A stretch of 64,000 nt of DNA, taken from IMG/VR virus record IMGVR_UViG_3300005289_000054, one strand, 5' to 3'. The notes beneath the pieces are model-generated. The model was not told the origin of the DNA. It did not search any database and worked only from the letters and a program-made list of their open reading frames with translations. Source of the DNA: a virus. Its lineage: Duplodnaviria > Heunggongvirae > Uroviricota > Caudoviricetes. Numbering within the stretch: the stretch's first letter is position 1; each line of letters starts with the position of its first letter. Both the position numbers and the translations under genes were made by a program. Shown one piece after another: positions 3,755 through 19,510 of the stretch.

Positions 3755-4254
3755 TTCATTTACCTTCTATGTTTAAGCGTTATTGCTTGGTATGAAGCTA
3801 TTAAAACAATTTCTCTATAATATGTCAACAACTATTTTAAATTAATTTTATATTTTTTATCTAATCTTTATAAAACAACAAGTTAATCATTAAAACATTA
3901 CAATATTTATTCTAATAAAGATGATCCTTATCTTAAAACACTTCTAAAGCTAAGATACACACATAGAAACACGCCGTGTAACGTTAATAAAGAGCGGGTG
4001 TGCGTGAATAACACAATTAAGTGGTAAACACAACAATTTAATTGTTATTTATGATGAATGGCATTAAAAATGAGATTATTATCCACAAGAGAATAATTAA
4101 AACAGAAAGATTATCAGTCATTTCTGACCTATCAGATAATATTATAATATTTTGTTCACATATTTTTTCTAATTTTTTTAAAAATTCCCCAAAATTTTTC
4201 ATGTGTAGCCAGATTCTGAGGAATTATTTGGTTTTATTTACAGTGTGATTTTTA

Positions 4255-4590
4255 TCAACCCATCCACATATTGTACAAGAAATGGAATGCAAGGATAAAT
4301 GCAATTACAAATCCAGAGGAAAGGGAAGTAAGCACACAGTAACCAGTGAGCTTATCAACCCATTCAGGAGGGTTATACTCTAACACAGTCGTAACAGCAA
4401 AGACACACAAACATATTAAACTACTTACAGTAAACACAGTGGTAATAATTTGAGCAAACATCTTCATAAACACCTTATTAAGTTGGTAAACACATAATAC
4501 ACCCCCTTGGGTCAAAAGTAAAGCCATTAAAGTGGAAATAATAAGAATATCTGCACACACATCATCCGAGTATTCGAGGATAGAGGACAC
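4255..4590 (-). CDS. hypothetical membrane protein
   Basis: 111-aa ORF with three or more hydrophobic segments. Confidence 0.45.
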   Translation of the reverse strand: MSSILEYSDDVCADILIISTLMALLLTQGGVLCVYQLNKVFMKMFAQIITTVFTVSSLICLCVFAVTTVLEYNPPEWVDKLTGYCVLTSLSSGFVIAFILAFHFLYNMWMG

Positions 4591-4772
4591 AGAGTATTAC
4601 ACATAGGATAGTACCAAGAGACGATGATGTCTCTTATTGAATACTCACATTAGAGAGAAGAGTATTATTCTTAGTTATAGTAAGGATTAGATTAGCATTC
4701 ATTCAATCTAGTCTAATCATATAACTAAGAGGAAGTGTTCTATTGTGCGTAGCACATAATTAGTATCCTGTC

Positions 4773-4792
4773 AACATGCAACGTTGCATGTT
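4773..4792. promoter_or_regulatory. 20-bp perfect palindrome AACATGCAACGTTGCATGTT (candidate operator)
   Basis: Read directly from the sequence. It lies in the divergent intergenic region. Confidence 0.5.
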
Positions 4793-4904
4793 ATATATTT
4801 GTGGATAAGTCAAATAGAAAATACCAATTAAAAAATATAATTAATCTAAAAATAAAATAATTGACATATCTTTTAGAGGTGTGTTTAACCCCCTATATCT
4901 ATTT

Positions 4905-5175
4905 ATAGATAATTTATTACACATTCCAATAATCCTCTAACTACTCCTAACTACTCAAAACCATTAATATCAATACATTCCAATAAAATTACATTACACA
5001 TAATTAGTATTCTACATTACACCTATAGTATCCTATTACACATAAACAATATTCGTATTGACACAAACAATACTTTATTACACATAACATATTGTTTACA
5101 CAATAATAACACTATTTATTACACATATGTTATTCTTCTTAATTACACATAGAATATTACATTTACAAAAGATAT
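4905..5175. repeat. iteron-like array of about eight TTATTACACAT-type motifs
   Basis: Full copies at about 4915, 5074 and 5115, and shorter ATTACACAT variants at about 4993, 5015, 5035, 5095 and 5141. Spacing is 26-41 bp. A second motif CATAATTAGTAT occurs twice, at about 4756 and 5000. Confidence 0.55.
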
Positions 5176-5342
5176 ACAATATAGGTGTTAAATAGTTATT
5201 AAATACTCAAAAAATATTCCTTGAGGAGTTACTACCCCGATGAGTTTCAGAACACTTTTAAATTCAATCACTTAAAATCATTTCTTTATATAGGAACATA
5301 GAAAAATATAAATTTGATTTAGGTGTAAAACATGTGTAAGAT

Positions 5343-5376
5343 AGTACAAGATGCTGAGCCGATTTGGTGTTATAAT
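5343..5376 (+). promoter_or_regulatory. candidate sigma70 promoter with extended -10 (TGtTATAAT)
   Basis: The sequence tgttataat sits at 5367-5376, 34 bp upstream of the TTG start at 5410. The RBS AAGGAG is at 5398-5403. Confidence 0.35.
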
Positions 5377-5409
5377 ATAACATTATATATTGACATGAAG
5401 GAGTAATAA

Positions 5410-6744
5410 TTGAAAGTTGAGATTTTAGATGGTGTGATGGGTAGTGGTAAAACTACTGCTATTTGTAAATGGATGGATGATCTGTCAATAAAAGATAGTA
5501 GCTCTAAATTCTTCTACATCTCACCATTGTTGAGTGAAGTTCAAGAAGATGGTGGTCGTATTCACAAACAATGTAATCATGTTAAGTTTGTATCTCCTGA
5601 GAGTAAGGGTAGAAGTAGTAAGGGTGATCACCTCTTAGAGTTATTGAAAGATGGTGTTAATATTGCTTGTACACACAGATTGTATTTGAATATGGATGTT
5701 AGACACTTCAATATTATGAAGGAGTTAGGGTATAACCTCATTATTGATGAAGAGATTGGAATGATTGAGGGTTATAATGCTTACTCGCAAGCTGATTGTG
5801 ATTTCCTCATTGAACAACAATGTATTGGTAAACAAGATAATGATGGGATGTTGATATGGTTGAAAGATAGTGAGAGTTTTCATAAGTCAGATCATAAATA
5901 CTATGAGTTTAAGAAGAATATTGAGAATGGCTTGATTTATGCATGTAAATCTTCTAACTCGATGATGGTTACACAACTTCCTGTTAAACTGCTAGAAGTG
6001 GCTAAACGTATTATCATCCTCACATACATGTTTGAAGGAAACATCTTATCTTCTTTCTTGAAGCTTAAAGAGATTGAATATGTTCCATTTACGGAAGTGA
6101 TTTTAAATGATATCAGTAAGGATAATATTAAACCTTTGATTAAGTTACATCAACCAAGATATTTTAGACAATGGAAGTTTATGGATGAGTTGCCTATGAC
6201 GTACACTTGGTATTCAGGAAAAACACAGGTTAAAGAGAAGCGCATCACCAATCAAGATGTTCTTAATATTACAAAGTACATTAAGAGTGTTAAGAGTGCT
6301 TGTGGTGCTAATTGGGAAGATGTTTTATACACATTTCCTAAATGTCGTAGTTTATTAGATATTGATAGTCGTATGGCTAAAATCAACCCTGAAGATTTAA
6401 AGAGAGTTGATGTGTTAGAAGCTAAACAGACATGGTTACCTAGTAACACTAGAGCTACGAATAATCTTAGTCATAAATGGTGTTTAGTGCATTGTTATAA
6501 TAGATACCCAACTCAATCTGTTATGCAATATTTACGTGATTATGGGGTAGAGGTTAATAATGAAGTTTTTGCACTAACAGAAATGATTCAATGGATATGG
6601 AGGAGTCGTGTTCGTAATCAAGAAGAGATTTATCTTGCAATTGCATCAAAACGTATGAGATTGTTGTTTCTTAACTGGTTACATGATTTACCGTTAAGTA
6701 ATGAAGATCATAGTTACTTTACTGATTATTTGAAGGGTAAATAA
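5410..6744 (+). CDS. P-loop NTPase (Walker A GSGKTT, Walker B LIIDEE); function unknown
   Basis: 444-aa ORF. It apparently starts at TTG 6 nt after an AAGGAG RBS. The N-terminus MKVEILDGVMGSGKTT resembles phage nucleotide kinase or helicase Walker A motifs. Confidence 0.55.
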   Translation: MKVEILDGVMGSGKTTAICKWMDDLSIKDSSSKFFYISPLLSEVQEDGGRIHKQCNHVKFVSPESKGRSSKGDHLLELLKDGVNIACTHRLYLNMDVRHFNIMKELGYNLIIDEEIGMIEGYNAYSQADCDFLIEQQCIGKQDNDGMLIWLKDSESFHKSDHKYYEFKKNIENGLIYACKSSNSMMVTQLPVKLLEVAKRIIILTYMFEGNILSSFLKLKEIEYVPFTEVILNDISKDNIKPLIKLHQPRYFRQWKFMDELPMTYTWYSGKTQVKEKRITNQDVLNITKYIKSVKSACGANWEDVLYTFPKCRSLLDIDSRMAKINPEDLKRVDVLEAKQTWLPSNTRATNNLSHKWCLVHCYNRYPTQSVMQYLRDYGVEVNNEVFALTEMIQWIWRSRVRNQEEIYLAIASKRMRLLFLNWLHDLPLSNEDHSYFTDYLKGK

Positions 6745-6803
6745 TACTTGCATTGTTTTTGTTCATTTGTTAAAGTGTTCGTAATTACTTAGGAGATTTT
6801 GAT

Positions 6804-7100
6804 ATGTTTGATGATGAATATTGGTATGAAGAAACTCGCTATCAACCTGATTTTTGGTGTTTATTTAAAGTAAATAAATATGATAGCATTAAGCTTGCTA
6901 AGATCATCTGGCGAGATGCTATTTGGACAGGAGTTAAAGAATATGGTTATGGTGAATATTCACATACTATCCCAACTGAATCTATTATGACTCGATCTAC
7001 AGATTATAAAATGCTAAAAGAAATCCTTCGAACATATGAAATGATTGAAGACTGGGAAAAAGAAAGATTTAAATGTGTTAAAGTATACATGGAGATTTAA
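6804..7100 (+). CDS. hypothetical protein
   Basis: 98-aa ORF. Confidence 0.45.
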   Translation: MFDDEYWYEETRYQPDFWCLFKVNKYDSIKLAKIIWRDAIWTGVKEYGYGEYSHTIPTESIMTRSTDYKMLKEILRTYEMIEDWEKERFKCVKVYMEI

Positions 7101-7101
7101 A

Positions 7102-7293
7102 ATGTATGTTATTGTTTCAACATTAGATGAAAATTTATGGTTGTGCTATGATGGTCTTGCTAATGAATATTATTATAAACCAGCATTTGATTATCGAGCA
7201 ATTATGTGTAAAACATTGGAACAAATGAATTTAAATGAGATACCGTTTAAATTTTCCATTAAACCAATGAAACTAAAACTTGTTGAGGTATAA
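7102..7293 (+). CDS. hypothetical protein
   Basis: Track ORF 7045-7293. The start was moved to the ATG at 7102, which follows a GGAGAT RBS. This gives TAAAATG coupling. Confidence 0.4.
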   Translation: MYVIVSTLDENLWLCYDGLANEYYYKPAFDYRAIMCKTLEQMNLNEIPFKFSIKPMKLKLVEV

Positions 7294-7295
7294 TT

Positions 7296-7475
7296 ATGTC
7301 AGATATTAATATTACGTTTGAACGATATGAAGAATTAAGAGACGTTATTTATCACAAATTATTTTGGGATGCAAGTGTTACTGGTGATGAAATAGAGTAT
7401 ATTATGAATATTCTCCACAAACACAGAGAGAGTAATATTCATACTTTTCTGGAGAGCTTAGATGAAAGTGAATAA
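7296..7475 (+). CDS. small hypothetical protein (59 aa)
   Basis: Manually translated ORF (MSDINITFERYEEL...). A GAGGT RBS lies 6 nt upstream. It falls below the track cutoff. Confidence 0.45.
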   Translation: MSDINITFERYEELRDVIYHKLFWDASVTGDEIEYIMNILHKHRESNIHTFLESLDESE

Positions 7476-7659
7476 TCTCGATATTCTTATTATGCAAGTA
7501 GAGGATGTTGATTATAATGCAGCTAAATACCTTAAAGAACAAAGGAGTAGTTTGAGAAATAGCTGTACAAAAGTAGAAGAATTATTCATTTGGGATACAA
7601 CCCCGCAAAGGCATTCCTTTTGGGCTGATATTTCTAGAAAACTAGGAGAACGTAAATGA
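7462..7659 (+). CDS. hypothetical protein, tandem paralogue A
   Basis: 65 aa. It shares clear similarity with the next ORF (DxNAAKxxK ... WDxTPQxHxxW ... SxKLGE). Confidence 0.5.
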   Translation: MKVNNLDILIMQVEDVDYNAAKYLKEQRSSLRNSCTKVEELFIWDTTPQRHSFWADISRKLGERK

Positions 7660-7847
7660 AAACTAATTTAGAATCACTTATTGAGCGTGTTGAGAAAATA
7701 GACTTCAATGCTGCTAAATTCATGAAAGACAATCTTCATTGGATGGATGAGGATGTATCAGAGCTGATTGAGTGTTTTAGTTGGGACTACACACCTCAAG
7801 GTCATGCTTATTGGAACAGAATTTCTAAGAAATTAGGAGAGCAATAA
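7656..7847 (+). CDS. hypothetical protein, tandem paralogue B
   Basis: 63 aa, with ATGA overlap to its paralogue. Confidence 0.5.
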   Translation: MKTNLESLIERVEKIDFNAAKFMKDNLHWMDEDVSELIECFSWDYTPQGHAYWNRISKKLGEQ

Positions 7848-8647
7848 TGTCAAAGTACAAATTAAAAGTAACAGATAAATCAAAGAACAGAGAAATTGCT
7901 GATTTATTTGAATGTATTGGGGCTAACCCAATAAGATTTTCTGTTAGTCAAGCTACGCACTTTTTTATGGAAGGGAACTATGTTGGTATTATTTCAGATG
8001 GAGATGATGAGTATTTCTACAAGCAACCTCAAAAAGAAATTAATTATGATGAACTAAAAGCCTTAGTCATTCTTAAAGATGGTAAAAAAGATATTGCTAC
8101 TCACTTTCAAACTTGTGATATTGATGAGAGATATTATGTTGTAAATAATGATATTATTTATTATTACAGCAAGGACAACAATGAATGGGTATTGTCTGGT
8201 GCAAGATTATCAGAATTAGAACCAATCAAGAATTTAAAAATCATCGAAGAAGAGCTTAGTGAGATGGAGTTAATTACTGGAACTTCAGCAATTACAGCTA
8301 TGTTTCTAGGCAAAGATGTAGAGTGGGCTAGACGTACAAACCCTAAAGTGTGGAGAGAATACAAAAGATCGACATCTTTCTCGATTGATTGTCTTACAGA
8401 AGGTGATATCTTATTTAGATTAAAGGAAGAAACCTTCATGATTGGTGGTGTTGAAGTACCAGTTGCAGTAAAAGAGCCAGAATTTGGACAGGTTTATTGG
8501 TTCATTGATGGTTATACTAATACTAAAGGTTATGAAAGAGCTAAATGGGATAATAAGAAGTTTAAATTTCCTCTTGCTTGCTGGGATTCAGAGAAGAAAG
8601 TAAAGAAAGTTGTCCAAGCTTTAGGAAACTTACTACAACCAAAATAA
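7847..8647 (+). CDS. hypothetical protein
   Basis: 266-aa ORF. Confidence 0.55.
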   Translation: MSKYKLKVTDKSKNREIADLFECIGANPIRFSVSQATHFFMEGNYVGIISDGDDEYFYKQPQKEINYDELKALVILKDGKKDIATHFQTCDIDERYYVVNNDIIYYYSKDNNEWVLSGARLSELEPIKNLKIIEEELSEMELITGTSAITAMFLGKDVEWARRTNPKVWREYKRSTSFSIDCLTEGDILFRLKEETFMIGGVEVPVAVKEPEFGQVYWFIDGYTNTKGYERAKWDNKKFKFPLACWDSEKKVKKVVQALGNLLQPK

Positions 8648-8728
8648 ATTAAATGACAGACTTGACAGAAATGTTAGGTCTGTTTTATTATGTAAGAACA
8701 AAATTAATCAGGCTATAAGGTAGTTATT

Positions 8729-9100
8729 ATGGAAACAAATATCAGCGAGACAATCAAAGCAACGAAGAATCATTTACGTAACCTTATTCAAGGTCATGGG
8801 CTAACTAAGCAAGAGATTAGAGATTTGTTTAGTGATGAAATGGCTACATATGTAAAAGATGCGGTTAAAAACTATATTTCTGCTTGGTCATTAGATGAAT
8901 TAATCAAAACAACTATTCATCAAGAAGTACGCCGTCAAGTTGGTATGTTGATTCGCCCTTCATACACACCTGAATTAAATACTAAAATGGAAGATATGGT
9001 TCGACAAGAAATTAACAAAGAAGTTCAACGTCTCGTTAATGAAAACTTTGAAATCAACATTGATTTAAAGAAATCTGAAACTGCTGTTGGGATAAAATGA
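8729..9100 (+). CDS. hypothetical protein
   Basis: 123-aa ORF. Confidence 0.5.
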   Translation: METNISETIKATKNHLRNLIQGHGLTKQEIRDLFSDEMATYVKDAVKNYISAWSLDELIKTTIHQEVRRQVGMLIRPSYTPELNTKMEDMVRQEINKEVQRLVNENFEINIDLKKSETAVGIK

Positions 9101-9327
9101 TCATTAGAAGAGATTTGACACTCTGTTAGCTCTCTTTTATTATACCTACAATTCATTGGAGATTGTGAAGTGGAAAAATTATACAGTGTTTTATGTCATT
9201 ACACAGATATTTGGTATGGACGTATGTGTTATCTTACTTTGGAAAACGTCACAAAAGAGGAAGCAGAGAGATTTGTAGCATCAAAAGAAAATTGTGGTGA
9301 TTTTTATGAAATTGTTGAGGTGAAAAC

Positions 9328-9546
9328 ATGAAAAAATATATGAAAGGTAATCTAGAACAGCTTAAAGCCACTATCGATGCTTTAATTGATGCAGAAGAAA
9401 GTGTTGACATGCATTGCTGGGAATATTCATGCACAACTGAAGAATATCAACAAGAGTGTTTGGATATGTTAGAATTTCGTAAGATGCAATTTGAATCTCG
9501 TGTTAAGTTTATTCTTAGTACATATTTTAAGGAAGGTGACTCATGA
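9328..9546 (+). CDS. hypothetical protein (Cys-containing, acidic)
   Basis: 72-aa ORF, first of six translationally coupled small ORFs. Confidence 0.45.
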   Translation: MKKYMKGNLEQLKATIDALIDAEESVDMHCWEYSCTTEEYQQECLDMLEFRKMQFESRVKFILSTYFKEGDS

Positions 9547-9779
9547 GTAATATTAAAGAAATCTTCAAACAAGTATTTAAAGAAGATTACGTAACAGAAT
9601 CTTATAAAATGCAAGGTCACAGCTTTAGTAAAGTAGTAGGTGGAAAACAGGTTTGTAAGTCTTGTGGACTTGTTGCATTAAATAATGATTTTACCAGATG
9701 GAGTATTGATAAAGGTTGTTATAGTGACTTACATCCTGAATACAAGAATGCTCGTAAACGTTTTACAAAGATATGGTAG
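9543..9779 (+). CDS. hypothetical protein (CxxC zinc-ribbon-like)
   Basis: 78 aa. It carries a CKSCG motif. Confidence 0.45.
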   Translation: MSNIKEIFKQVFKEDYVTESYKMQGHSFSKVVGGKQVCKSCGLVALNNDFTRWSIDKGCYSDLHPEYKNARKRFTKIW

Positions 9780-9785
9780 AAAGTT

Positions 9786-9995
9786 ATGAAAGAACACATT
9801 AAACGATTTGTATGCAACGATATTGTTCTACAAAATGGTGAAATACAATATCATTATGACAAAGTGCTTGGTCAAGCTTGGAGTGTTACCTATGAGAATC
9901 CAGAAATTGATTATTATAAATATCAAGTAGTTCCAACACTACAAGAAGCTTTTAGACTTTATGAAAAATGGTACAATAACATGAGAGGTGCATGA
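9786..9995 (+). CDS. hypothetical protein
   Basis: 69 aa. Confidence 0.45.
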   Translation: MKEHIKRFVCNDIVLQNGEIQYHYDKVLGQAWSVTYENPEIDYYKYQVVPTLQEAFRLYEKWYNNMRGA

Positions 9996-10210
9996 TGAAA
10001 GTTTGGGTTTTATTAAGAGAAGAAAATGATTATAACCAGCATAGTGAGTACTTTGAAAAGGTATTTCGAAATAAACCAACAATTGAAGAGTTAGCTAGGT
10101 TAAAGTTACGTTTAAGTATTCAGGAGTTAACTGATCTACATGAGTTTGGTTCTAGTGCATATTCATATGCAAGTTCTACAGTTTATGGACTAATTGAGGA
10201 AGAGATTTAA
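9992..10210 (+). CDS. hypothetical protein
   Basis: 72 aa, with ATGA coupling. Confidence 0.45.
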   Translation: MMKVWVLLREENDYNQHSEYFEKVFRNKPTIEELARLKLRLSIQELTDLHEFGSSAYSYASSTVYGLIEEEI

Positions 10211-10434
10211 TGGTTATAACTTTAGAAGATCATGAGATACATCCAATCTCAATTGATATTTTTAAATCAGATTCGTCTTACGTTGGTGGTAATTTTGGAG
10301 ATAAAGTTGATAACAAGTTAACTGTTTTTCAAATCTATAATGTTGATGAATATGTTGACCACTTAATTATGAATAAAGAGCAGATGTTAAAGTTTCATCA
10401 ACAATTAACAAAGTATTTAGAGGCTGAATTATGA
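10210..10434 (+). CDS. hypothetical protein
   Basis: 74 aa. Confidence 0.45.
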   Translation: MVITLEDHEIHPISIDIFKSDSSYVGGNFGDKVDNKLTVFQIYNVDEYVDHLIMNKEQMLKFHQQLTKYLEAEL

Positions 10435-10664
10435 CATGTCATCAAATTAAGAATGGTTTTGTTTGTATGAATCATTTTGAACCAATTAAAGTTCAGATTG
10501 AACCTGATGTTTTTGTATGGTTTGAACATCACAAATCCTTTGGCCCTTTCTTTTGGGCAGATGAAGATTGTACAAATGAATTTGACAGATGGTGGGATAA
10601 TGAAGTATTATCTAAATTCGTAGATGATTATTATGGTTACAACAAAGGAGAAAATGATGTATAA
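10431..10664 (+). CDS. hypothetical protein
   Basis: 77 aa. Confidence 0.45.
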   Translation: MTCHQIKNGFVCMNHFEPIKVQIEPDVFVWFEHHKSFGPFFWADEDCTNEFDRWWDNEVLSKFVDDYYGYNKGENDV

Positions 10665-11544
10665 AAACTACAAGAAGAAGATTGAAGTCTTCTTTAGTCC
10701 AAACACTTTACAGTCAGCATTAATGAATTTTGAGAGAGAATACATTCGACATGAAGTGTTCAAATTTAATGATGGTAGTGTTAAGGTCACAATAAACGAT
10801 AATATTCCAGATCATCATTACTGTGAAATCCACATGTTTATGGAGACTATGGATGATTTAATGGTTGTTGCACAAATTAAAGATATTGTGCAACGAAAAT
10901 CTAAAAGCCCTAAAGACTTTGTACTCTACATTTCGTCTCCTGTTTATTCAAGATATGATCGTGTTATGCTTGATAATCAGACAGATGCTTTTGGTGCTAG
11001 AGTCTTTGCCAATTTTATTAACTCTCTTTATTTTGATAATGTCATTCTATTTGACTGTCATAGTAATGTTATGAGTGGCATGATTAACAACTCTTATAGT
11101 GTAGAACAGAAGCTATTAGCTGAAACATGTGTAGGAAGTTTAGAAAATTTTCTTCTTATCGCTCCAGATAAAGGAGCCTTAGTTAAGAACCCAACAGCAG
11201 ATATTGTTTTAAGTAAAGCTCGTGATGTAAATACAGGTAAGATTATTGGAGTACACCTTGATAAAGTACCAAATGCAAGTATTGATGGAAAAGATTGCTT
11301 ACTTATCGATGATATTTGTGAAGGCGGACGAACATTCACAGAAGTTGCTCATTCGATTAATGCTGAACATTCTCCGAATCTCAATCTCTATATTACTCAT
11401 GGTATTTTCTCAAATAATGCAATCGAAAAATTGCTTGTAGATTATAAAGAAATTTATGTTTACTTTATGAAAGAAAGTGTTTATGATTCACTTTGTATCG
11501 CATATAAAGAGCGATTGAATGTTTACAATTTAATTATTAATTAG
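10654..11544 (+). CDS. ribose-phosphate pyrophosphokinase (Prs) family protein; candidate ADP-ribose pyrophosphokinase (Adps) of a NARP1-type NAD+ reconstitution pathway
   Basis: A PRPP-binding-loop-like motif, LLIDDICEGGRTF, resembles the Prs DDIIDTGGT loop. Length is about 300 aa. The start was set at the ATG at 10654, just after an AGGAG RBS. It lies immediately upstream of the Nampt-like gene. Confidence 0.65.
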   Translation: MMYKNYKKKIEVFFSPNTLQSALMNFEREYIRHEVFKFNDGSVKVTINDNIPDHHYCEIHMFMETMDDLMVVAQIKDIVQRKSKSPKDFVLYISSPVYSRYDRVMLDNQTDAFGARVFANFINSLYFDNVILFDCHSNVMSGMINNSYSVEQKLLAETCVGSLENFLLIAPDKGALVKNPTADIVLSKARDVNTGKIIGVHLDKVPNASIDGKDCLLIDDICEGGRTFTEVAHSINAEHSPNLNLYITHGIFSNNAIEKLLVDYKEIYVYFMKESVYDSLCIAYKERLNVYNLIIN

Positions 11545-11553
11545 GAGAAACAC

Positions 11554-13389
11554 ATGGATTTACTTACTAAACAAAATGAAATTTTTCGATCACTTAAAGG
11601 TCATGTTCCTGTTATTAATCCCTTCTTATATGGAACAGATTCATATAAGATGTCACACATTAAGATGCAAACAGAAGGGGTTAAAGAAATTTATTCAAAC
11701 TTCACACCACGTTTCTCTAAGTATTTAAAAGATATGTTGGGTGATAAGTTCGACAATAAATATGTTGTATTTGGATTACAGTGGATGATGCTTCGTTTAC
11801 ACATGATGGCACAAGAAGGTTTCTTTAATCGTCCTAAAGATGAAGTAATTGCTGAAATGAAAGAAGTATTAACTCCTTACATTGGCAATGATAAGTATGA
11901 TCATTTTGAAGCACTCCATGATCTTGGTTATCTACCAATTGTTGTTAAGACTTTAGATGAAGGTACTATTGCTCCTGTTGGCGTTCCATTTTTAACTATC
12001 CGAAATAGTGTTTTAGGATTTGAATGGTTGCCTAACTTCTTAGAAACTATTATCTCAACTGATTTATGGAAGCAGTTAACTATCGCTACAGTAGCTCATA
12101 TCTTCCGTAAAATTACAAACGAGTTTGCTTTAGAAACTACTGGTAGTATTGAAGGTACAGAGTGGCAGAACCATGATTTCCATGTACGTGGTGCTAGTGG
12201 TTTTGAGAGCGCTGCAATTGACGGTGTTGCCTTCTTATTAAGTTCATGTGGCACTGATAACATTCCTGCTTTGTGGGCTGCTGATAAGTTTTATCAAAGT
12301 TCTAATAAACAAGGATTATTAGCTGGTTCAGTTCCTGCTGGAGAACATTCAGTAACAACTTCAGGTATTCTTGCGGAAGTAGAGCGTGCAGCTTTAGATG
12401 GCGAGGATTTAACTAAAGAACAAGCAGAATACTTCTATGCTCGAAAGATTATGATGGAGCGCTTCCCAACTGGAATTGTTTCCTATGTCGCTGACAGCTA
12501 CGATTATTGGAATTTTATTGGTAAGATTTTACCTTCATTAAAAAATGAAGTAATGTCTCGTGATGGTAAGTTTGTTGTTCGTGGTGATAGTGGTAATCCT
12601 GTAGATGTTATTTGTGGTGTTGTTGAAGATTACGAGGTAATCGAAGCAGATAATGAAGAGGAATTCTTAGAAGCAGCTTATGAGATTATCCATGATAATT
12701 TACAGGATGTAACACCTCATGGGGAATATGGAGGCGATGACCATGATATGAACTTTAGTTGGAATGGTCGTATTTACAATGTTTCTTTCTCAGGATTCCA
12801 ATGGAATCGTTACGATAAACAGTACTACTACTTGGACACTTACCGTTCAGATGTAACTCATAAGATGACTGAGATCAAACGAAATATTGAACACAAAGGA
12901 ACGATTGAAGCACTCTGGGATATCTTTGGTGGTCATGTAAATGATAAAGGTTATAAAGTTCTAGATTCACACATTGGTATGATTTATGGTGATGGTATTA
13001 CTGTAGAGCGTCAGATTGAAATCTTAACACGATTGAAGAACAAAGGTTTTGCATCAACTAATATTGTATTTGGTGTTGGTTCTTACTCTTTAAACATGGT
13101 AAGTCGTGATCATTTAGGAATGGCTATTAAAGCAACTAACCAAGTTTTGGAATTAGATAATGGTATTGTCTTAGACCAACCAATCTATAAAGACCCTAAG
13201 ACAGATACTTCTAAGAAGTCTGCTCATGGTTTGATTAGTGTTCATGAAGATGAGAATGGTGAACTCTACTTTAAAGATAAACAGAATCGTAAGGAAGAGA
13301 AAACTGGTTTATTAAATGTTCTTTATATGAATGGTCAATTTCAGAAGTTAACAAACATCTTTGAAATTCGTGAAAAGATGTGGGATTAA
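11554..13389 (+). CDS. nicotinamide phosphoribosyltransferase (Nampt/NadV) family protein; candidate Namat of NARP1
   Basis: 611-aa ORF with a strong AGGAG RBS. The N-terminus (PFLYGTDSYKMSHI...) and length are Nampt-like, and it is translationally coupled to the Prs-like gene. Confidence 0.7.
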   Translation: MDLLTKQNEIFRSLKGHVPVINPFLYGTDSYKMSHIKMQTEGVKEIYSNFTPRFSKYLKDMLGDKFDNKYVVFGLQWMMLRLHMMAQEGFFNRPKDEVIAEMKEVLTPYIGNDKYDHFEALHDLGYLPIVVKTLDEGTIAPVGVPFLTIRNSVLGFEWLPNFLETIISTDLWKQLTIATVAHIFRKITNEFALETTGSIEGTEWQNHDFHVRGASGFESAAIDGVAFLLSSCGTDNIPALWAADKFYQSSNKQGLLAGSVPAGEHSVTTSGILAEVERAALDGEDLTKEQAEYFYARKIMMERFPTGIVSYVADSYDYWNFIGKILPSLKNEVMSRDGKFVVRGDSGNPVDVICGVVEDYEVIEADNEEEFLEAAYEIIHDNLQDVTPHGEYGGDDHDMNFSWNGRIYNVSFSGFQWNRYDKQYYYLDTYRSDVTHKMTEIKRNIEHKGTIEALWDIFGGHVNDKGYKVLDSHIGMIYGDGITVERQIEILTRLKNKGFASTNIVFGVGSYSLNMVSRDHLGMAIKATNQVLELDNGIVLDQPIYKDPKTDTSKKSAHGLISVHEDENGELYFKDKQNRKEEKTGLLNVLYMNGQFQKLTNIFEIREKMWD

Positions 13390-13420
13390 TGTTGACAAAT
13401 TAAAATTAAATAGATAATAT

Positions 13421-13452
13421 AAGGACATGAGTTAATACTTGTGTCCTTTTTT
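13421..13452 (+). terminator. rho-independent terminator (copy 1 of a duplicated element)
   Basis: AAGGACA-14-nt loop-TGTCCTT followed by TTTT, immediately after the Nampt-like gene. Confidence 0.55.
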
Positions 13453-13460
13453 ATTGGAGA

Positions 13461-13643
13461 TTGAAAATGGGTAGAAAGATTAAACCTAATGCTGCAACAC
13501 ATTATGTAGAGAAACAATGTTTCTATGGTTTTACTGAAACAATTTACATAAAGGATTGTGTTATATGTTGGCAATATTGGAATGATGCTTGGTTTGATTG
13601 GTATTATTACGATGGTAGTTGGGGTGAACCAAAACATCTTTAA
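13461..13643 (+). CDS. hypothetical protein
   Basis: 60-aa ORF rich in W, Y and C. Confidence 0.35.
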   Translation: MKMGRKIKPNAATHYVEKQCFYGFTETIYIKDCVICWQYWNDAWFDWYYYDGSWGEPKHL

Positions 13644-13654
13644 AGGAAAATAGA

Positions 13655-13879
13655 ATGTACAGTTATTATAAGCGTGAAGGTTGGTTGATTGAAGATGTTA
13701 AATCAAATGCACCAATCAATGCTACTCACTATTGTTTGTCTGGTTATGGAACTTATGTTCATTATTTTAAATTAACTAAGAAAGAAACATGGGTGTCGTT
13801 AGCTTATGGTAAGAAGTTTGGATTAGCTACAAGTCATGTAATGAGTATTGGTAAACCTTTACCACTGAAAGAGGATTAA
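13655..13879 (+). CDS. hypothetical protein
   Basis: 74 aa. Confidence 0.4.
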   Translation: MYSYYKREGWLIEDVKSNAPINATHYCLSGYGTYVHYFKLTKKETWVSLAYGKKFGLATSHVMSIGKPLPLKED

Positions 13880-13882
13880 ATA

Positions 13883-14224
13883 ATGGGTAATTATGATTTA
13901 CAGATTGAACTATTAGAACGTTTAATTCATAATTGGTATGATATTAAAACACCTGATGATTTTTATAAAGTGTTTCCTGAACATGATAGAGATTACCTAC
14001 ATCGAGATGGTTTGTGTTCTGTTTGTAGATTTGTTTTTATAAACAAACAACAAAGATGGAAGATGTTTCAAGAGTGGTCATTGTATGATTATGATTTATT
14101 ATATCCAGTTGGAGGTGTTAATGAGTTTATTAGTATGAAATTAATCACAGATAATCCAAAACGATTACATCTTGCAGTCTGGTGTCTACAATGGTTAAGA
14201 GAACGAAATATTGAGGAAATTTAA
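13883..14224 (+). CDS. hypothetical protein
   Basis: 113 aa. Confidence 0.45.
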   Translation: MGNYDLQIELLERLIHNWYDIKTPDDFYKVFPEHDRDYLHRDGLCSVCRFVFINKQQRWKMFQEWSLYDYDLLYPVGGVNEFISMKLITDNPKRLHLAVWCLQWLRERNIEEI

Positions 14225-14225
14225 A

Positions 14226-15146
14226 ATGTATGAATGTTTGATTGAAAAATATAAAGATGATGTTAAGTATTATGAATACTACATGAATGAACATGGTGCT
14301 ATTCCTAAAACACCTCATGTTAAAATACCTGAAGGTGCGGAATACTTAATTTGTCATGAAAAAGTTTATGATAAAGAATTGGTATTTAATAAAAATAACT
14401 TTGATTATACTTGGTCAATAACACACAACTATACCAAATGGGAGAATTCAAATTGGGATAGTATAATTGGTGATCGTTTTGAGTATATGAAAGAACATTA
14501 TGGTAGTGTTGTACTTTGGAAGAGAGAGGAAGAATTAAAACCTATGAAAGATTTTTATCCAGATGATGTACTTGCTGTAACAGAATCTAAAAGCACCAAG
14601 TTATGGTGGTACGATAACGGTATGGTTAGTAAACCAAATGATAACTTATACCAACCTTGGCATAGTACATATAAACAATACCTAACCGATGTTCCGTATA
14701 CTAAACTTATTTACAAACGAGAGGATAAAGTAATGGAAATTACACCAGTGAACGAAGATATTTATTTACTAACTAAGTTACAAGCTTGTGATGTGTTATT
14801 AAGTCGAACATCTGTATTGCAATATCAATCAACTGATGGTGATTGGGTTGATTTTAAATCAAATGCAAACAAATCAAACGCTCAGTTGTATGTAATACTA
14901 TTTAATTTAGATGATACTAAATTTAGAATTAAACCTGAGTTAGACCACATTCCTATTGAGTTTTGTGAAGTAATGGATATGTTAACTGATAATAGAGGTA
15001 ATGAAATCTTCATAAATAAAGAAGCTAATCTAGCACAAGCAGAAAATCCTTTATTTTATTTACAATACCATTATCATGATAAATATTCACGAGTAGTAGA
15101 GAAACAAGTAACTTATGATCAATGGAAAACAAAAGGAAATAAATAA
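14226..15146 (+). CDS. hypothetical protein
   Basis: Track ORF 14211-15146. The start was moved to the ATG at 14226, which follows a GAGGA RBS. Confidence 0.5.
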   Translation: MYECLIEKYKDDVKYYEYYMNEHGAIPKTPHVKIPEGAEYLICHEKVYDKELVFNKNNFDYTWSITHNYTKWENSNWDSIIGDRFEYMKEHYGSVVLWKREEELKPMKDFYPDDVLAVTESKSTKLWWYDNGMVSKPNDNLYQPWHSTYKQYLTDVPYTKLIYKREDKVMEITPVNEDIYLLTKLQACDVLLSRTSVLQYQSTDGDWVDFKSNANKSNAQLYVILFNLDDTKFRIKPELDHIPIEFCEVMDMLTDNRGNEIFINKEANLAQAENPLFYLQYHYHDKYSRVVEKQVTYDQWKTKGNK

Positions 15147-15290
15147 TGTTAGATGTAGTTTGGCTTTCTTTATTCACTTGTTCAATTACTTTTATTGGAT
15201 CTTTATTAAGTGGAAATAAGTTTTTATACTGGTTATCATTAATTGGAATACTTTTTAATTCTTTAGCTATATTATTTAAGTGAGAGTCAC

Positions 15291-15473
15291 ATGCGCTTAA
15301 AAAGTGAAATTCAAACCCACATAGATGATCTCTGGACAGAGTATAATGAATCCATTGATAGCTTTGTACTTAGTAATCTTGAAGACCAAGAGTCTTGGTT
15401 AAAAAGTGTTATTGCTTACAAAAAGATTGAAGCTTTAAACTGGGTTCTTGAAACAACAATTAAGGAGAAATAA
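15291..15473 (+). CDS. hypothetical protein
   Basis: 60 aa. Confidence 0.4.
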   Translation: MRLKSEIQTHIDDLWTEYNESIDSFVLSNLEDQESWLKSVIAYKKIEALNWVLETTIKEK

Positions 15474-15692
15474 ATGTCCATAGTAAATGGTTTTTTAGAA
15501 GATAGAACACAATGGTACAAAGTAACAAAATTAGCGACAGTGATAAAAGGAGAGTATTTATTTGAAGATATAGAATTACTTGGTGAGGTTGACTTAGGTG
15601 AACTTGGTGTTTGGTATTACACAGATAGTATACCTAACTACCATACTGGAGTTTGTCAGATGTGGTTTCAAAAAGATTATCTTCGGATGTAA
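15474..15692 (+). CDS. hypothetical protein
   Basis: 72 aa. Confidence 0.4.
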   Translation: MSIVNGFLEDRTQWYKVTKLATVIKGEYLFEDIELLGEVDLGELGVWYYTDSIPNYHTGVCQMWFQKDYLRM

Positions 15693-15704
15693 TTATTTTT
15701 AATA

Positions 15705-15730
15705 AGAGAGCTTGTGCTCTCTTTTTTATT
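15705..15730 (+). terminator. rho-independent terminator
   Basis: AGAGAGC-ttgt-GCTCTCT followed by TTTTTTATT. Confidence 0.55.
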
Positions 15731-15775
15731 GTGTATAATAAATTTATAAAGTAATTAACTAACAGGATAAACACC

Positions 15776-16144
15776 ATGAATAGTTTAAATAAACCAGTGA
15801 TTAAAGTAGAACATACAGATTCAGAAGTTGTTGTACTTAGATTTATTGACGAAGACAAAAATGAATTCTTTATTGAATACTTTTTGGATGGAGAGCCGAC
15901 CTTAGTAGATGAAAGTTTTGATCATGCATTTGGAACTGAAGTTAGTTATGGTTTAGATATTGACTCAATTAACTTCGATAAGATTGTTTACAAAAACTCT
16001 GAGGAAGAAGAGCTATCTGAATGCCCAGAGCAGATCAAACCTTACGAGATTAGTCTTGAGTCAATTGTAAATGAAGAGTTGATTAATTATTTCATTGCAA
16101 GAATGGATAATAAATTTGTTGAGTTTAATGAGTACTGGTTATGA
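15776..16144 (+). CDS. hypothetical acidic protein
   Basis: 122 aa. Confidence 0.5.
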   Translation: MNSLNKPVIKVEHTDSEVVVLRFIDEDKNEFFIEYFLDGEPTLVDESFDHAFGTEVSYGLDIDSINFDKIVYKNSEEEELSECPEQIKPYEISLESIVNEELINYFIARMDNKFVEFNEYWL

Positions 16145-16341
16145 TTAAAAAGATTTGGTTGGAAATTGTTTATTGGTATGGTGTAATATTTCTCAATAAA
16201 CTAACACGAGAAGAGATTGCTTGGAATGAAAAATTTCCATGTAAGTATTGCAGACCACATCCATCTGAAACAATGTGTGGTAGTATTGAAAGTAAGTGTA
16301 GTGAATGCGGCAGAACTATTTATATTTCTTTAGGGTATTAA
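16141..16341 (+). CDS. hypothetical protein (Cys-rich C-terminus)
   Basis: 66 aa. It carries a CKYCRPH...CSECGR motif. Confidence 0.4.
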   Translation: MIKKIWLEIVYWYGVIFLNKLTREEIAWNEKFPCKYCRPHPSETMCGSIESKCSECGRTIYISLGY

Positions 16342-16361
16342 TAGTTGTTATTAAGTGAAAA

Positions 16362-16386
16362 TAAAGGAGCCTCTTGGCTCCTTTAT
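16362..16386. terminator. bidirectional terminator hairpin between convergent genes
   Basis: AAAGGAGCC-tctt-GGCTCCTTT, flanked by A/T runs on both sides. Confidence 0.5.
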
Positions 16387-17064
16387 TTATTTGTTCTTAA
16401 AGTACCACCAAATAGTTTCTATTAACAGGTATACCCATACAACCTGACCAATCAAAGGAATCATAGAAATTAAAGAGGACTTGTACCAATCTGATAACAG
16501 GTAGCTATGTTTTCTAACCATATACTCTTTATATGTTTCATCATCAGGAACTAAGTACCAATCACCATCATCAGTCAGTCCACCATACCCATATTCAATA
16601 TGATATGTTCTTCCAAGTAATTCCTTAGCAATAGGATTAACTATATGTCCAATAAAAGCCTTGCCTTCATAACTGATGGCCTTTCTTCTCAACCACATAA
16701 TGTCATCAACATCTTCTTTATTATTATAAAAGTAATAACCCTTGTAAGGGTTTGTCTCAAACTCAACACCTAACTTCTTAGCTCTGAGTAAGTGCATAGA
16801 TACAAGTAAAGAAGTCAACCTAATTCTAGATTTTGGATTTTCTCTCTCATAATAACCTACTGGAGCAAAATCTTGGTAAGCTTCAGATTTACAATCAATG
16901 CATCCAGTCAGAAAGAATAATGATTTCTTGACTTCTTCTTCATAACTGTAAACTTTAGCCATCCTTGCATTTAATGCATCAAGCTCTGCTTGCTTAACAC
17001 CTTCATCGTATTCAATAAACTCTGACACAAGATGACTATTTATTTTACATACATCTTTTTCCAT
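16387..17064 (-). CDS. hypothetical protein (C-terminal TM segment)
   Basis: 225 aa. Confidence 0.5.
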   Translation of the reverse strand: MEKDVCKINSHLVSEFIEYDEGVKQAELDALNARMAKVYSYEEEVKKSLFFLTGCIDCKSEAYQDFAPVGYYERENPKSRIRLTSLLVSMHLLRAKKLGVEFETNPYKGYYFYNNKEDVDDIMWLRRKAISYEGKAFIGHIVNPIAKELLGRTYHIEYGYGGLTDDGDWYLVPDDETYKEYMVRKHSYLLSDWYKSSLISMIPLIGQVVWVYLLIETIWWYFKNK

Positions 17065-17088
17065 AACAACATCTCCAACTTTTAAACT

Positions 17089-17646
17089 TTATTGCTTATC
17101 TACAAAAGATAGTCTAATCAAGACTCGTCTACAATCTTCAGTAACTATAGGAGAACAATGAAGCTCTCTTCCATACATATACACTCTATTTGGCTCACAC
17201 TGCTTCACTACGCCATCTTCTTTATAATGAGTACCAAATATATTAGAATAAATTAAGTGCGTCTCATGCTTATTAGGATGGTCATAATCACGTACCCAAT
17301 CATAATGGTAATTGTTGTACCAATCTCCAGAACCTCCTTTCTTCAAGTCTCTAACTTTAACATCTAAATAGCATAACTCATAATCTTCAAATTTCCAAGT
17401 GGAGTAAGCTAACATAGATTTAATTACATTTCCAATTGCTGGGTGCAGCATATTAGCCACATAAACTAAATGATCTGCATCTTTAATCAATTTATATTTA
17501 ATTTCTAAAAGATCTGGCAAATCTTTTTTGTCAATAGGTTTAAATTCAATAGGTAACTTCTGCATATTTTCTCCATAATAAAATAGGACTCTATTAGTTA
17601 GAGTCCTATTATACTTAATAATATGATAAGGTTTTAGTATCCACAA
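17089..17646 (-). CDS. hypothetical protein
   Basis: 185 aa with a His-rich segment, HYDWVRDYDHPNKHETH. Any 2OG-Fe oxygenase-like fold is only a guess. Confidence 0.45.
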   Translation of the reverse strand: MWILKPYHIIKYNRTLTNRVLFYYGENMQKLPIEFKPIDKKDLPDLLEIKYKLIKDADHLVYVANMLHPAIGNVIKSMLAYSTWKFEDYELCYLDVKVRDLKKGGSGDWYNNYHYDWVRDYDHPNKHETHLIYSNIFGTHYKEDGVVKQCEPNRVYMYGRELHCSPIVTEDCRRVLIRLSFVDKQ

Positions 17647-18440
17647 TAATAATCCTCAACATCTAAAATTAAAGCTCCGTCTAAATATTTAGCCTTAATT
17701 TCATAGTTAGTATCATGAATATCATCTAAGAAACTAACAAAGTTATCAATAACTTCAAAAAATAACGTATTATCTTTTAAATGAGTATTAATAGTTGTTT
17801 TGCTATCCTGATCATACTCAAATAACGCCCCCATGTCCTCATCTTCATCAACTTCCAAATAAAGATCATCGTGAGTGAATCCATAACCTGAGTCTTTTTC
17901 AACACACAGAGAATAATCATAACTATGCTCACATGGTTCACCATCATTAAAGCTTGGTGTGTATCCACGAGTTACAACAGCAAAGTTACCAAATTCCTTA
18001 CCAATAAGCTTAATATAAGCAAAGATATGCTCTTCTTTAAGACTACCAAGAATTTTCTCATACTCCTGTTTAGCAAGAATAAAAGACTTTACCACTTGTT
18101 CTTCTGTTGTTAAACCAACCAAACCAAGTGCTTGATACACACGCTCATCAATATTAGCACCACGAGACAATGATTCTTTGTAATAATCTAAACTCGTTTG
18201 TTCTGGCTCCCATTGATCTTCCAAGCCATAGCATGAGCAATGACTTCCATGCACTTCATACAATTCACCATCAACACTCTCGAAGATTACCAACGAACTA
18301 CCAGAGTAATCCTCATAAGTGTAATCAGCAAAAATAATCTTACCAACAAGTGCTCGATCATGATCAGATACTTGATATGTGTCAAGAATTTCTTTCTCTG
18401 TTGCCTTGGCAAAGTCATTAATAAAAATTTGTTTATACAT
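17634..18440 (-). CDS. hypothetical protein
   Basis: 268 aa. Confidence 0.5.
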   Translation of the reverse strand: MYKQIFINDFAKATEKEILDTYQVSDHDRALVGKIIFADYTYEDYSGSSLVIFESVDGELYEVHGSHCSCYGLEDQWEPEQTSLDYYKESLSRGANIDERVYQALGLVGLTTEEQVVKSFILAKQEYEKILGSLKEEHIFAYIKLIGKEFGNFAVVTRGYTPSFNDGEPCEHSYDYSLCVEKDSGYGFTHDDLYLEVDEDEDMGALFEYDQDSKTTINTHLKDNTLFFEVIDNFVSFLDDIHDTNYEIKAKYLDGALILDVEDYYCGY

Positions 18441-18450
18441 AAATATCTCC

Positions 18451-18843
18451 TTAATTACTTAAACGTTTCATTTCTTTTTTACAAAAATCATAAATCTCTA
18501 AAGCCAATTCCTCGATAGGAACATAACCATAGACTGTGTCAAGAGGATTAGCTTTATCCTCAGCATACTTCTTAATAAAACTTTCGCTGGTTTCAAAACT
18601 AGGGAATCCAATTTCAACATGAGTATATGAAGAGCAATTCTTACGTGGTAAACAATAAACATACTCATTCGCTTGAATAGATACACTATACTTATGAATT
18701 TCCACACCATCAATAAGGATGTTAAAAGTAAATCGTGGTACTTGCTGTAGTGCAAATAAACTCTCATATGTTTTTACACTACCAAAATCTCGACCATTCA
18801 CAGTCGATTTAACACGCTCTAAAATTTCCTCATACGTCAACAT
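18451..18843 (-). CDS. hypothetical protein
   Basis: 130 aa. Confidence 0.45.
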   Translation of the reverse strand: MLTYEEILERVKSTVNGRDFGSVKTYESLFALQQVPRFTFNILIDGVEIHKYSVSIQANEYVYCLPRKNCSSYTHVEIGFPSFETSESFIKKYAEDKANPLDTVYGYVPIEELALEIYDFCKKEMKRLSN

Positions 18844-19126
18844 TTACATCTCCTAAATACCATCTAACATCTTGCTTTAAAAACCAAAAGAAACCTTGAG
18901 CTGTATCAAATTCATGATATCTTTCTCTCATATACTCATGAATATGTTCTGGTTGTTGATAAAATAATACTTTGTCTGTCATCTCAAATCCAAGCTCCTT
19001 ATCATATAGGAAGTTAATAGCTGTTCTACCACCAATATGATCGGTGATCCTTACTTTGTCAACATACCAACCTTTCTCAATACTAAAACGTCTTACTGCT
19101 ACAATATCATCCATAGTAAATACCAT
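18830..19126 (-). CDS. hypothetical protein
   Basis: 98 aa. Confidence 0.45.
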   Translation of the reverse strand: MVFTMDDIVAVRRFSIEKGWYVDKVRITDHIGGRTAINFLYDKELGFEMTDKVLFYQQPEHIHEYMRERYHEFDTAQGFFWFLKQDVRWYLGDVNVDV

Positions 19127-19141
19127 TTTGTTTTAAAAATA

Positions 19142-19510
19142 TTAAACGATTCTAACAAAGGATGCAAGAGTATCACGTAAATTTTTAAAATTATCTCTAA
19201 CCGACCCTTCAGGAAGTTTCTTATCAAAATCAATTTCATCAAGATTCTTTGTATCTGCATTCTTAACAAATTTAAGAATCGTTTCTCCTGATTCTACAGA
19301 TAACACCTCAAAACTGTTTAAAGAGAATTTGTCTGTGAAAAATCCAGTCTTAGTTAATTTATAATACATAATAAATTTAATTTCAGGAAATAGTTCATGA
19401 ACAAAATCATTCTTAATCCATTCTGCATCATGACATTTCTTAACTGTCTTTGATGAAACAAAGTTAAAAACCGAGAGCATGTTATAAATGGTGTCTTTAC
19501 TTAATTTCAT
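19142..19510 (-). CDS. hypothetical protein
   Basis: 122 aa. Confidence 0.45.
   Translation of the reverse strand: MKLSKDTIYNMLSVFNFVSSKTVKKCHDAEWIKNDFVHELFPEIKFIMYYKLTKTGFFTDKFSLNSFEVLSVESGETILKFVKNADTKNLDEIDFDKKLPEGSVRDNFKNLRDTLASFVRIV

Follow-up and report, generated by a model that had tools for sequence, protein, structure and literature searches.

NAD+ reconstitution pathway 1 (NARP1) is a phage pathway encoded by two genes, one for Adps, a homologue of the ribose-phosphate pyrophosphokinase Prs, and one for Namat, a homologue of the nicotinamide phosphoribosyltransferase Nampt. It defeats a whole range of NAD+-depleting defence systems, namely Thoeris type I, DSR1, DSR2, SIR2-HerA and SEFIR and, as later work indicated, Kongming and SPARSA. 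Adps and Namat of Bacillus phage SPbetaL1 have been characterised (PDB 9w5x and 9w5w), and in Escherichia phage Bas63 the pathway is encoded by genes 79-80 (10.1101/2024.02.11.579819). In NARP1-AP, a Macro-domain phosphatase (Adpp) acting on ADP-ribose-1-phosphate (ADPR-1P) is encoded in or next to the operon, and RyDEP is a RyR-domain glycosidase acting on cyclic ADP-ribose (cADPR). NARP2 is represented by NadV and NatV of KVP40, whereas NARP3 consists of a PnuC-like transporter and a NadR-like enzyme (PMC13464706). Here we analysed a stretch of 64,000 nucleotides from a Caudoviricetes virus (IMG/VR record IMGVR_UViG_3300005289_000054; hereafter, the window), in which two adjacent plus-strand genes encode a Prs-family and a Nampt-family protein. 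The pair is most probably a plain two-gene NARP1 cassette, that is, an added member of a known system, drawn from a sub-lineage found in Acinetobacter phages.

In such a cassette, ADP-ribose (ADPR) and nicotinamide would be supplied by the SIR2, TIR or SEFIR effectors of NAD+-depleting defences, which would cut NAD+ into these two products. Adps would then move the beta,gamma-pyrophosphate of ATP to the 1'' hydroxyl carried by ADPR's terminal ribose, giving ADPR pyrophosphate (ADPR-PP), and Namat would swap the pyrophosphate for nicotinamide, yielding NAD+ directly and leaving no need for an adenylyltransferase acting on nicotinamide mononucleotide (NMN). Both of these substrate specificities, as well as the anti-defence phenotype, are what we infer for the pair in the window. 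The first-pass annotation had favoured a NARP1-like Adps and Namat over classical salvage through phosphoribosyl pyrophosphate (PRPP) and NMN, and all the sequence-level tests that we ran point the same way.

The longest open frame of the first gene spans 10624-11544 and encodes 306 amino acids (aa). Its best-fitting start is the ATG at 10657, which follows an AAGGAG Shine-Dalgarno sequence (10645-10650) by six bases. A 295-aa product starting at 10657 is also found in the gene calls of two independent metagenome records with identical sequence, and in a third record, which holds an 86%-identical homologue, the pair has the same arrangement and encodes 295 and 617 aa. Because of the AAGGAG spacing and the independent 295-aa gene calls, we prefer the start at 10657 and consider the 295-aa product likely. 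The two genes had originally been placed from 10654 onward with a first product of 306 aa; both open reading frames (ORFs) exist, but a start at 10654 gives 296 aa, and 306 aa corresponds to the start at 10624. The second ORF (11554-13389, plus strand) encodes 611 aa. It is separated from the first by a gap of 9 nt, and an AGGAG lies immediately before its ATG. Translational coupling, which had been taken as given, is plausible from this spacing; the genes do not overlap. The two genes and elements within them are as follows.

10657-11544, plus strand: adps, homologue of the Prs-family ADP-ribose pyrophosphokinase; likely 295 aa, with residue numbers below following the 306-aa frame
11209-11253, plus strand: catalytic beta-hairpin LSKARDVNTGKIIGV of Adps, whose K198 is the counterpart of K162 in SPbetaL1 Adps and of K185 in the ICP1 enzyme
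11308-11337, plus strand: remodelled pyrophosphate (PP) loop DDICEGGRTF of Adps, aa 229-238, of the Adps type (compare Bas63)
11554-13389, plus strand: namat, homologue of the Nampt-family nicotinamide ADP-ribose transferase; 611 aa
11707-11727, plus strand: selectivity-clamp loop (SCL) PRFSKYL of Namat, with Lys then Tyr, the Bas63 type
12622-12867, plus strand: insert of about 82 aa in Namat, aa 357-438, a small alpha+beta subdomain
13078-13110, plus strand: variant selectivity-clamp helix (SCH) GSYSLNMVSRD of Namat, aa 509-519, from comparison with the consensus in PMC12774641

What sets Adps apart from cellular Prs is its separate clade, its linkage to Namat, a PP loop of remodelled form through which the ATP donor is bound, a hairpin with a catalytic lysine and loss of the C-terminal alpha11-12 module (10.1101/2024.02.11.579819; PMC13586617). 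In ICP1 Adps, ADPR is contacted by F18, R87, F92, H121, D161, D212 and D213, while the ATP donor is bound by the PP loop, C215-S220, followed by F221 (PMC13586617). The hairpin lysines, K162 in SPbetaL1 and K185 in ICP1, have been probed by mutagenesis (10.1101/2024.02.11.579819; PMC13586617). We compared the first protein with Adps of SPbetaL1, FADO and Bas63, with E. coli Prs and 12 further gammaproteobacterial Prs, and with 44 IMG/VR Adps homologues, which were obtained by an alignment-based scan (a single-sequence scan with one Adps returned none).

The first protein belongs to the Prs family (PHROG 619, E=1.6e-62; TIGR01251, E=3e-24). However, it scores only 85 bits on TIGR01251, below the cutoff of 113, as compared to 96-138 bits for validated Adps and 423 bits for E. 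coli Prs. On the remaining NCBIfam Prs models, both equivalog and subfamily, it reaches 31-74 bits against cutoffs of 296-536; E. coli Prs scores 533 bits on one of them, NF002320. On the Pfam Prs domains the protein falls under the gathering score. Model comparison, which the first-pass annotation had proposed as a check, thus returned the low Prs scores of an Adps. Raw identity was discarded as a discriminator, with 24% to E. coli Prs versus 23-29% to validated Adps.

Inspection of the ribose-5-phosphate pocket, a further check proposed at that time, showed that the canonical DTGGT loop is not retained and that CEGGRT stands in its place, whereas residues contacting ADPR are present. The DDICEGGRT motif noticed in the first reading lies at aa 229-237, and the loop, with C232-E-G-G-R-T237-F238, reads as a whole DDICEGGRTF, compared to DDICDGGRTF in Bas63 Adps and DDMIDTGGTL in 9 of 9 gammaproteobacterial Prs in the set. 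The hairpin reads SKARDVNTGKI, of the K-x-R-D-x-x-T-G-x-I type, compared to SKVRNLKTGEI in Bas63 Adps and DKRRPxxNV in Prs, and the protein has HS at the position of HA in Prs. The column of K198 (SPbetaL1 K162) is conserved across all Adps in the alignment. Mapped by motif through an ICP1-like IMG/VR homologue, rather than by structure, ICP1 residues F18, R87, H121, D161, K185, D212 and D213 correspond to F48, R110, H146, D182, K198, D229 and D230, and F92 to M115, a position that is Met in Bas63 as well. The protein stops about 24 residues short of E. coli Prs in the alignment, and the C-terminal alpha11-12 module of Prs is gone. In a neighbor-joining (NJ) tree, Prs and all the phage homologues are split at 100% bootstrap, the window protein being placed among Adps of Bas63, SPbetaL1 and FADO; together with the vB_AciJM_313 protein and two IMG/VR contigs, it forms a group with 100% support. 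Every Adps feature open to testing appears, on sequence grounds, to be present in the first protein.

The second protein belongs to the Nampt family (PHROG 448, E=6.8e-171; NF006629, 415 bits against a cutoff of 405). Among solved structures it is closest to SPbetaL1 Namat (9w5x, 371 bits), followed by 9ke8 (295 bits), human NAMPT (179 bits) and Xanthomonas Nampt (145 bits). An AlphaFold2 (AF2) model built with 72 homologues had a pLDDT of 92.8. In Foldseek searches with this model Namat was the top match (E=1e-50, TMt 0.93); 9ke8 and 9keo came next and NAMPT after them. PDB entries 9ke8 and 9keo are both Haemophilus ducreyi NadV; the idea that 9ke8 could be a phage NARP2 enzyme was ruled out on this account. 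In an NJ tree, human NAMPT and KVP40 NadV are separated from all Adps-linked proteins at 100% bootstrap. On the NARP2 side this tree has just KVP40 NadV, the other outgroup being human NAMPT, because an IMG/VR scan for relatives of KVP40 NadV gave no more than KVP40 and one near-identical contig. The comparison against Nampt, Namat and NadV that had been recommended for the 611-aa protein therefore places it nearest to SPbetaL1 Namat among solved relatives and apart from KVP40 NadV.

The catalytic core of SPbetaL1 Namat comprises D13, Y15, F189, R192, D215, R306, D308, G360, D361 and the catalytic His (PMC12774641). All of it is conserved in the window Namat (D29, Y31, F209, R212, D235, H265, R343, D345, G479 and D480), as are all residues that contact the nicotinamide and NMN moiety, the catalytic histidine included. 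The mark specific to Namat is the adenine selectivity clamp, made up of the SCH, GS-X-phi-X-phi-X-phi-TRD with aromatics at positions 3 and 7, and a stacking residue in the SCL (PMC12774641). The third SCL residue is Arg, Lys or Tyr; with Lys or Tyr in that place, stacking on adenine falls to the residue in fourth position (PMC12774641). In the window the SCL reads PRFS-K56-Y57, Lys followed by Tyr, in a register taken from the alignment with R40 of SPbetaL1, and Y57 is at least 90% conserved. The SCH agrees with the consensus at G, S, Tyr in position 3, Ser, Asn and Val at phi1, phi2 and phi3, R and D. Its canonical form is GS[FY]TYQY[NM]TRD, while KVP40 NadV has GGGLLQQLDRD and human NAMPT GGGLLQKLTRD.

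The variant helix is not a peculiarity of this locus. It recurs in vB_AciJM_313, Acj9, AB1I1M-1 and Aci05 as GS[YF]SL[NG]M[VL]SRD, and each of the best 120 homologues from a search of 5.8 billion proteins fits GS[YF]-x-L-[NGS]-[MLY; rarely V or T]-[VLI]-[SG]-RD. The variant clamp strings were not found in the searched text of the supplementary tables of Osterman et al. Apart from this partly divergent clamp helix, the second protein would qualify as a Namat.

The Namat of the window also carries a long insert. The stretch from RGDSGNP to YGDGIT spans 134 residues, compared to 129 in Bas63, 52 in SPbetaL1 and 40 in KVP40 and human. In the AF2 model, aa 357-438 form a helix, a beta-hairpin and one more strand, with confidence dipping at 421-430. 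The site is an insertion hot spot in Namat homologues, hypervariable in length and sequence; within the insert subtype of the window, TPHGExG and WNRxDKQYYYLD are motifs that show little or no variation.

Linkage of the two genes is strict. Across the IMG/VR loci with an Adps homologue, the order is Adps then Namat, with Namat directly downstream, in 44 of 44 cases, and a Namat gene has been reported in the immediate vicinity for 97% of the Adps clade (10.1101/2024.02.11.579819). A tblastn comparison of all window ORFs at 5000-17700 with 51 other NARP1 loci found no flanking gene in common except the pair itself; what is conserved is precisely the pair. The closest carrier is vB_AciJM_313 (48% identity for Adps and 63% for Namat), followed by the T4-like phages Acj9, Acj61 and AB1I1M-1 (43-47% and 57-61%) and the Saclayvirus group (about 31-32% and about 56%). 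The Acj9 homologue, 59% identical to the window Namat, is given as "Adps-associated" in a table of Osterman et al. (10.1101/2024.02.11.579819). In vB_AciJM_313 (locus 14860-19763), the few kb that follow the pair hold genes with the annotations cyclic-phosphate processing, polynucleotide kinase, amidoligase and amidophosphoribosyltransferase; the window has no such genes.

Compared with Bas63, the window cassette has the same gene order and close spacing, and its Adps has nearly the same PP loop, DDIC[DE]GGRTF, and hairpin, SK.R[DN]..TG.I, in addition to Met at the ICP1 F92 position. The two Namat proteins share Lys plus an aromatic in the SCL and a long insert at the same site, between RxDSG and YGD. 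However, identity is only 29-33% for Adps and 35% for Namat, the insert sequences are unrelated, the SCH is canonical in Bas63 (GSYTYQYMTRD), and the window Adps has about 20 additional Prs-like residues at the N terminus. The nicotinamide/NMN contacts and the catalytic Lys of Adps are shared with SPbetaL1. In contrast, SPbetaL1 Namat has 491 aa and no insert, uses Arg40 of the SCL directly and carries GSFTYQYNTRD as its SCH, and the PP loop of SPbetaL1 Adps is SSFGGTF. The pairs of Acinetobacter phages vB_AciJM_313, Acj9, Acj61, AB1I1M-1 and Saclayvirus Aci05, annotated as Prs and Nampt, resemble the window pair in SCH variant, SCL type and insert site. Their carriers are unrelated: some are T4-like, at about 165-170 kb, others Saclayvirus-like, at about 100-104 kb, and vB_AciJM_313 has 106 kb, whereas the window phage is Phab24-like. 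With NARP2 and cellular Nampt or NadV, the second protein has in common the Nampt fold and catalytic core, but where the clamp would be, KVP40 NadV and human NAMPT read GGGLLQxL[DT]RD, and neither has an Adps next to it.

We also looked for genes of other NAD+ pathways. A Pfam scan (hmmscan) was carried out on the concatenated window ORFs of at least 60 aa, with those at 54442-62354 covered instead by precomputed Pfam calls for the contig. The scan found ribonucleotide reductase, ThyX, a family A DNA polymerase, a DnaB-like helicase, glutaredoxin, a gp5.9-like RecBCD inhibitor and an SPFH protein. Neither a cytidylyltransferase-like Nmnat (CTP_transf_like) nor a Nudix domain, as expected for NARP2, was present among the window ORFs of at least 60 aa, and there was no Pfam match in the window to PnuC or NadR of NARP3. 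The flanking ORFs gave no Pfam match to a Macro-domain Adpp or RyR-domain RyDEP, in a search by hmmscan, whose sensitivity is lower than that of HHpred, the tool of the original work. The precomputed calls for ORFs at 54442-62354 included no Nmnat and consisted solely of GDSL lipase domains on a protein of 836 aa. In the next 8 kb of the contig past the window, baseplate and tail genes were found.

Several observations weigh against reading the pair as NARP1. SCH position 7 is Met rather than the adenine-stacking aromatic (Tyr396 in SPbetaL1), position 5 is Leu, and Thr is replaced by Ser. In SPbetaL1 Namat, single clamp substitutions cost 1.3- to 1.7-fold and double substitutions 2.4- to 16.6-fold (PMC12774641). 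Since single substitutions cost little, one altered stacking position should be tolerated. SPbetaL1 Namat can itself use PRPP in vitro (PMC12774641), and H. ducreyi NadV, an enzyme that forms NMN in E. coli (PMC6095924), nests alongside the Namats of SPbetaL1 and FADO at 89% bootstrap, with 57% identity to the one from SPbetaL1. Both stacking aromatics are lost from the SCH of H. ducreyi NadV, GAQTYQRNTRD, and this enzyme looks like a member of the Namat lineage that went back to using PRPP or was co-opted for it. With an NMN-making enzyme inside the Namat clade, clade position alone is no proof of ADPR-PP use, and it is therefore the clamp and the linkage to Adps that matter for specificity. 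In 52% of bootstraps the Acinetobacter-phage sub-lineage of the window splits off first within the Adps-linked clade, below all validated Namats, which belong to other lineages, and for this reason the window Namat is not firmly bracketed by them. On the Adps side, the Prs outgroup of the NJ tree is gammaproteobacterial only, and the tree leaves the root inside Adps unresolved. PHROG 619 fails to separate the two families, with 212 bits for the window protein, 193 for E. coli Prs and 246-333 for validated Adps, and was not used as a discriminator because of this. Finally, the gene-content negatives cover the window and the next 8 kb, and about 19 kb of the contig lies beyond.

Could the pair instead support classical salvage, in which a true PRPP synthetase and a true Nampt would turn ribose-5-phosphate, ATP and nicotinamide into NMN, and the host's own NMN adenylyltransferase would carry it on to NAD+? 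We regard this as unlikely. Acinetobacter hosts possess an NMN adenylyltransferase (NadM), so that a missing phage Nmnat does not exclude the route. The first-pass annotation had pointed to the lack of an NMN adenylyltransferase in the window, and we found none either; as an argument this is weak, because the host enzyme could complete the salvage. Membership of both proteins in the Prs and Nampt families, an SCH without the second aromatic, the ability of Namat-clade enzymes to form NMN from PRPP (PMC12774641) and the behaviour of H. ducreyi NadV in vivo would fit this explanation as well. On the other hand, Prs grips the 5-phosphate of ribose-5-phosphate with its DTGGT loop, and the window protein has CEGGRTF, of the Adps type, in that place; it also stays far under the cutoff of every curated Prs model and lacks the regulatory and filament C terminus of Prs. 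In addition, SPbetaL1 Adps yielded no product in a Prs-activity assay, and the phage Nampts of the NMN route (NARP2) form a separate clade and are linked to a phage Nmnat in 94% of cases (10.1101/2024.02.11.579819). A general metabolic role, in which the pair would raise NAD+ or PRPP for nucleotide and DNA metabolism of the phage whether or not a defence is present, is highly improbable. The ribonucleotide reductase, ThyX and glutaredoxin in the window could be taken to favor it, as could the finding that NARP2 raises NAD+ without a defence system, but an Adps-type enzyme needs ADP-ribose, and in experiments with Bas63 ADPR-PP was seen only under an active NADase defence (10.1101/2024.02.11.579819). 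Moreover, the pair lies among early small genes, whereas the nucleotide-metabolism genes sit on the opposite strand.

A different departure from the plain pathway would keep a true Adps and alter its partner: the variant clamp, with Tyr, Leu and Met for Phe/Tyr, Tyr and Tyr, together with the insert, would relax or shift the donor preference of Namat, so that its donors might be both PRPP and ADPR-PP, or another ADPR-like pyrophosphate. Conservation of the SCH variant in the best 120 homologues and in four unrelated Acinetobacter-phage lineages suggests selection, the sub-lineage branches deep in the tree, and the insert has invariant motifs within its subtype. Nevertheless, we consider such a shift very unlikely: single clamp substitutions in SPbetaL1 cost just 1.3- to 1.7-fold (PMC12774641), two other stacking positions are retained (SCH Tyr511 and SCL Tyr57), and Bas63 Namat, which was validated in vivo, has a long insert at the same site. 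Strict linkage to Adps further implies that ADPR-PP is the relevant donor. There is only a small chance that the Acinetobacter-phage sub-lineage as a whole is a functionally distinct variant of NARP1, in which the donor specificity of Namat is changed or broadened or the insert has a regulatory or partner-binding role; as examples of the latter, the insert might channel ADPR-PP from Adps or evade a host countermeasure. The plain two-gene NARP1 cassette remains our preferred reading.

Two further signals lie outside the coding sequences of the pair.

10582-10611, plus strand: promoter-like site TTGACA-18 nt-TATTAT, 11 of 12 consensus matches, inside the end of the preceding small ORF
13421-13456, plus strand: intrinsic-terminator-like hairpin, a 12-bp stem followed by UUUUUUAUU (U run), 32 nt past the namat stop

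The upstream site is one of only three 11/12 promoter matches in 4000-17500, all of them on the plus strand; since the total number of promoter-like sites in this region is not above shuffle expectation, it is a candidate consensus match. The hairpin has a predicted folding energy of -16.6 kcal/mol (z = -4.4), and none of 200 shuffled sequences folds as well. Taken together, the promoter-like site upstream and the hairpin downstream bracket the pair and suggest that the two genes are transcribed as a unit of their own.

The window has the same sequence as ENA contig ERZ27251527:k141_1833293 (90,951 bp), and a JGI contig of 14.7 kb likewise shows no difference from the region around the cassette (window 3744-18427). 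The DNA polymerase of the window is 88.5% identical at the aa level to that of Acinetobacter phage Phab24, while the first 25 kb have a nucleotide match to known Acinetobacter phages over merely 4-6% of their length. The phage that carries the pair, about 91 kb in size, is an uncultured relative of Phab24. Comparison of positions 1-25000 with Phab24, TaPaz, Ab3/5/7 and MD-2021a showed replication genes near those of Phab24 and a highly mosaic early block. A 22-kb stretch of Phab24 that was examined has no cassette homologue, and neither Phab24 nor its relatives TaPaz and Ab3/5/7 are among the best matches to either cassette protein, in a search that covers best matches rather than full genomes. 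The NARP1 pair looks like an acquired accessory.

Placement of the pair within an early block of small genes, as noted in the first reading, was confirmed: the plus-strand block extends over 5410-16341, and the small genes around the pair have no Pfam matches. The first gene of the block (5410-6744, plus strand) encodes a 444-aa protein with a P-loop N terminus (weak DEAD match) and a precomputed YonV_C match; with 86% DNA identity to a hypothetical gene of Acinetobacter phage TaPaz, it is the best-conserved part of the early region. On the minus strand, an 88-aa ORF at 29102-29368 matches Phage_T7_Gp5_9, a RecBCD inhibitor (Pfam, E=2.5e-16), and is a second candidate anti-defence gene. The 271-aa product of 23217-24032 (minus strand) has a lipoprotein-like N terminus and an SPFH/Band 7 domain (E=1.3e-13), which is unusual for the early or middle region of a phage. 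Minus-strand genes at 57868-60378 and 54442-57855 encode tail-fibre-like proteins of very large size, 836 and 1137 aa respectively. The GDSL lipase/esterase domains of the 836-aa protein, from the precomputed Pfam calls, suggest a deacetylating or depolymerising receptor-binding protein.

On the NARP1 reading, an uncultured Phab24-like phage of the Acinetobacter type carries a complete and apparently self-contained copy of the pathway. In the Acinetobacter-phage sub-lineage, the conserved variant clamp may still enforce specificity for ADPR-PP. If the pair is truly NARP1, the cassette should stay sensitive to aRES-type defence, which yields ADPR-1''-phosphate, because it includes no Macro or RyR accessory gene. 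The cassette can be pictured as a mobile two-gene module that moves among unrelated phages of one host genus, a picture to which the copy in the window adds, and its presence bears on the choice of therapeutic phages against Acinetobacter.

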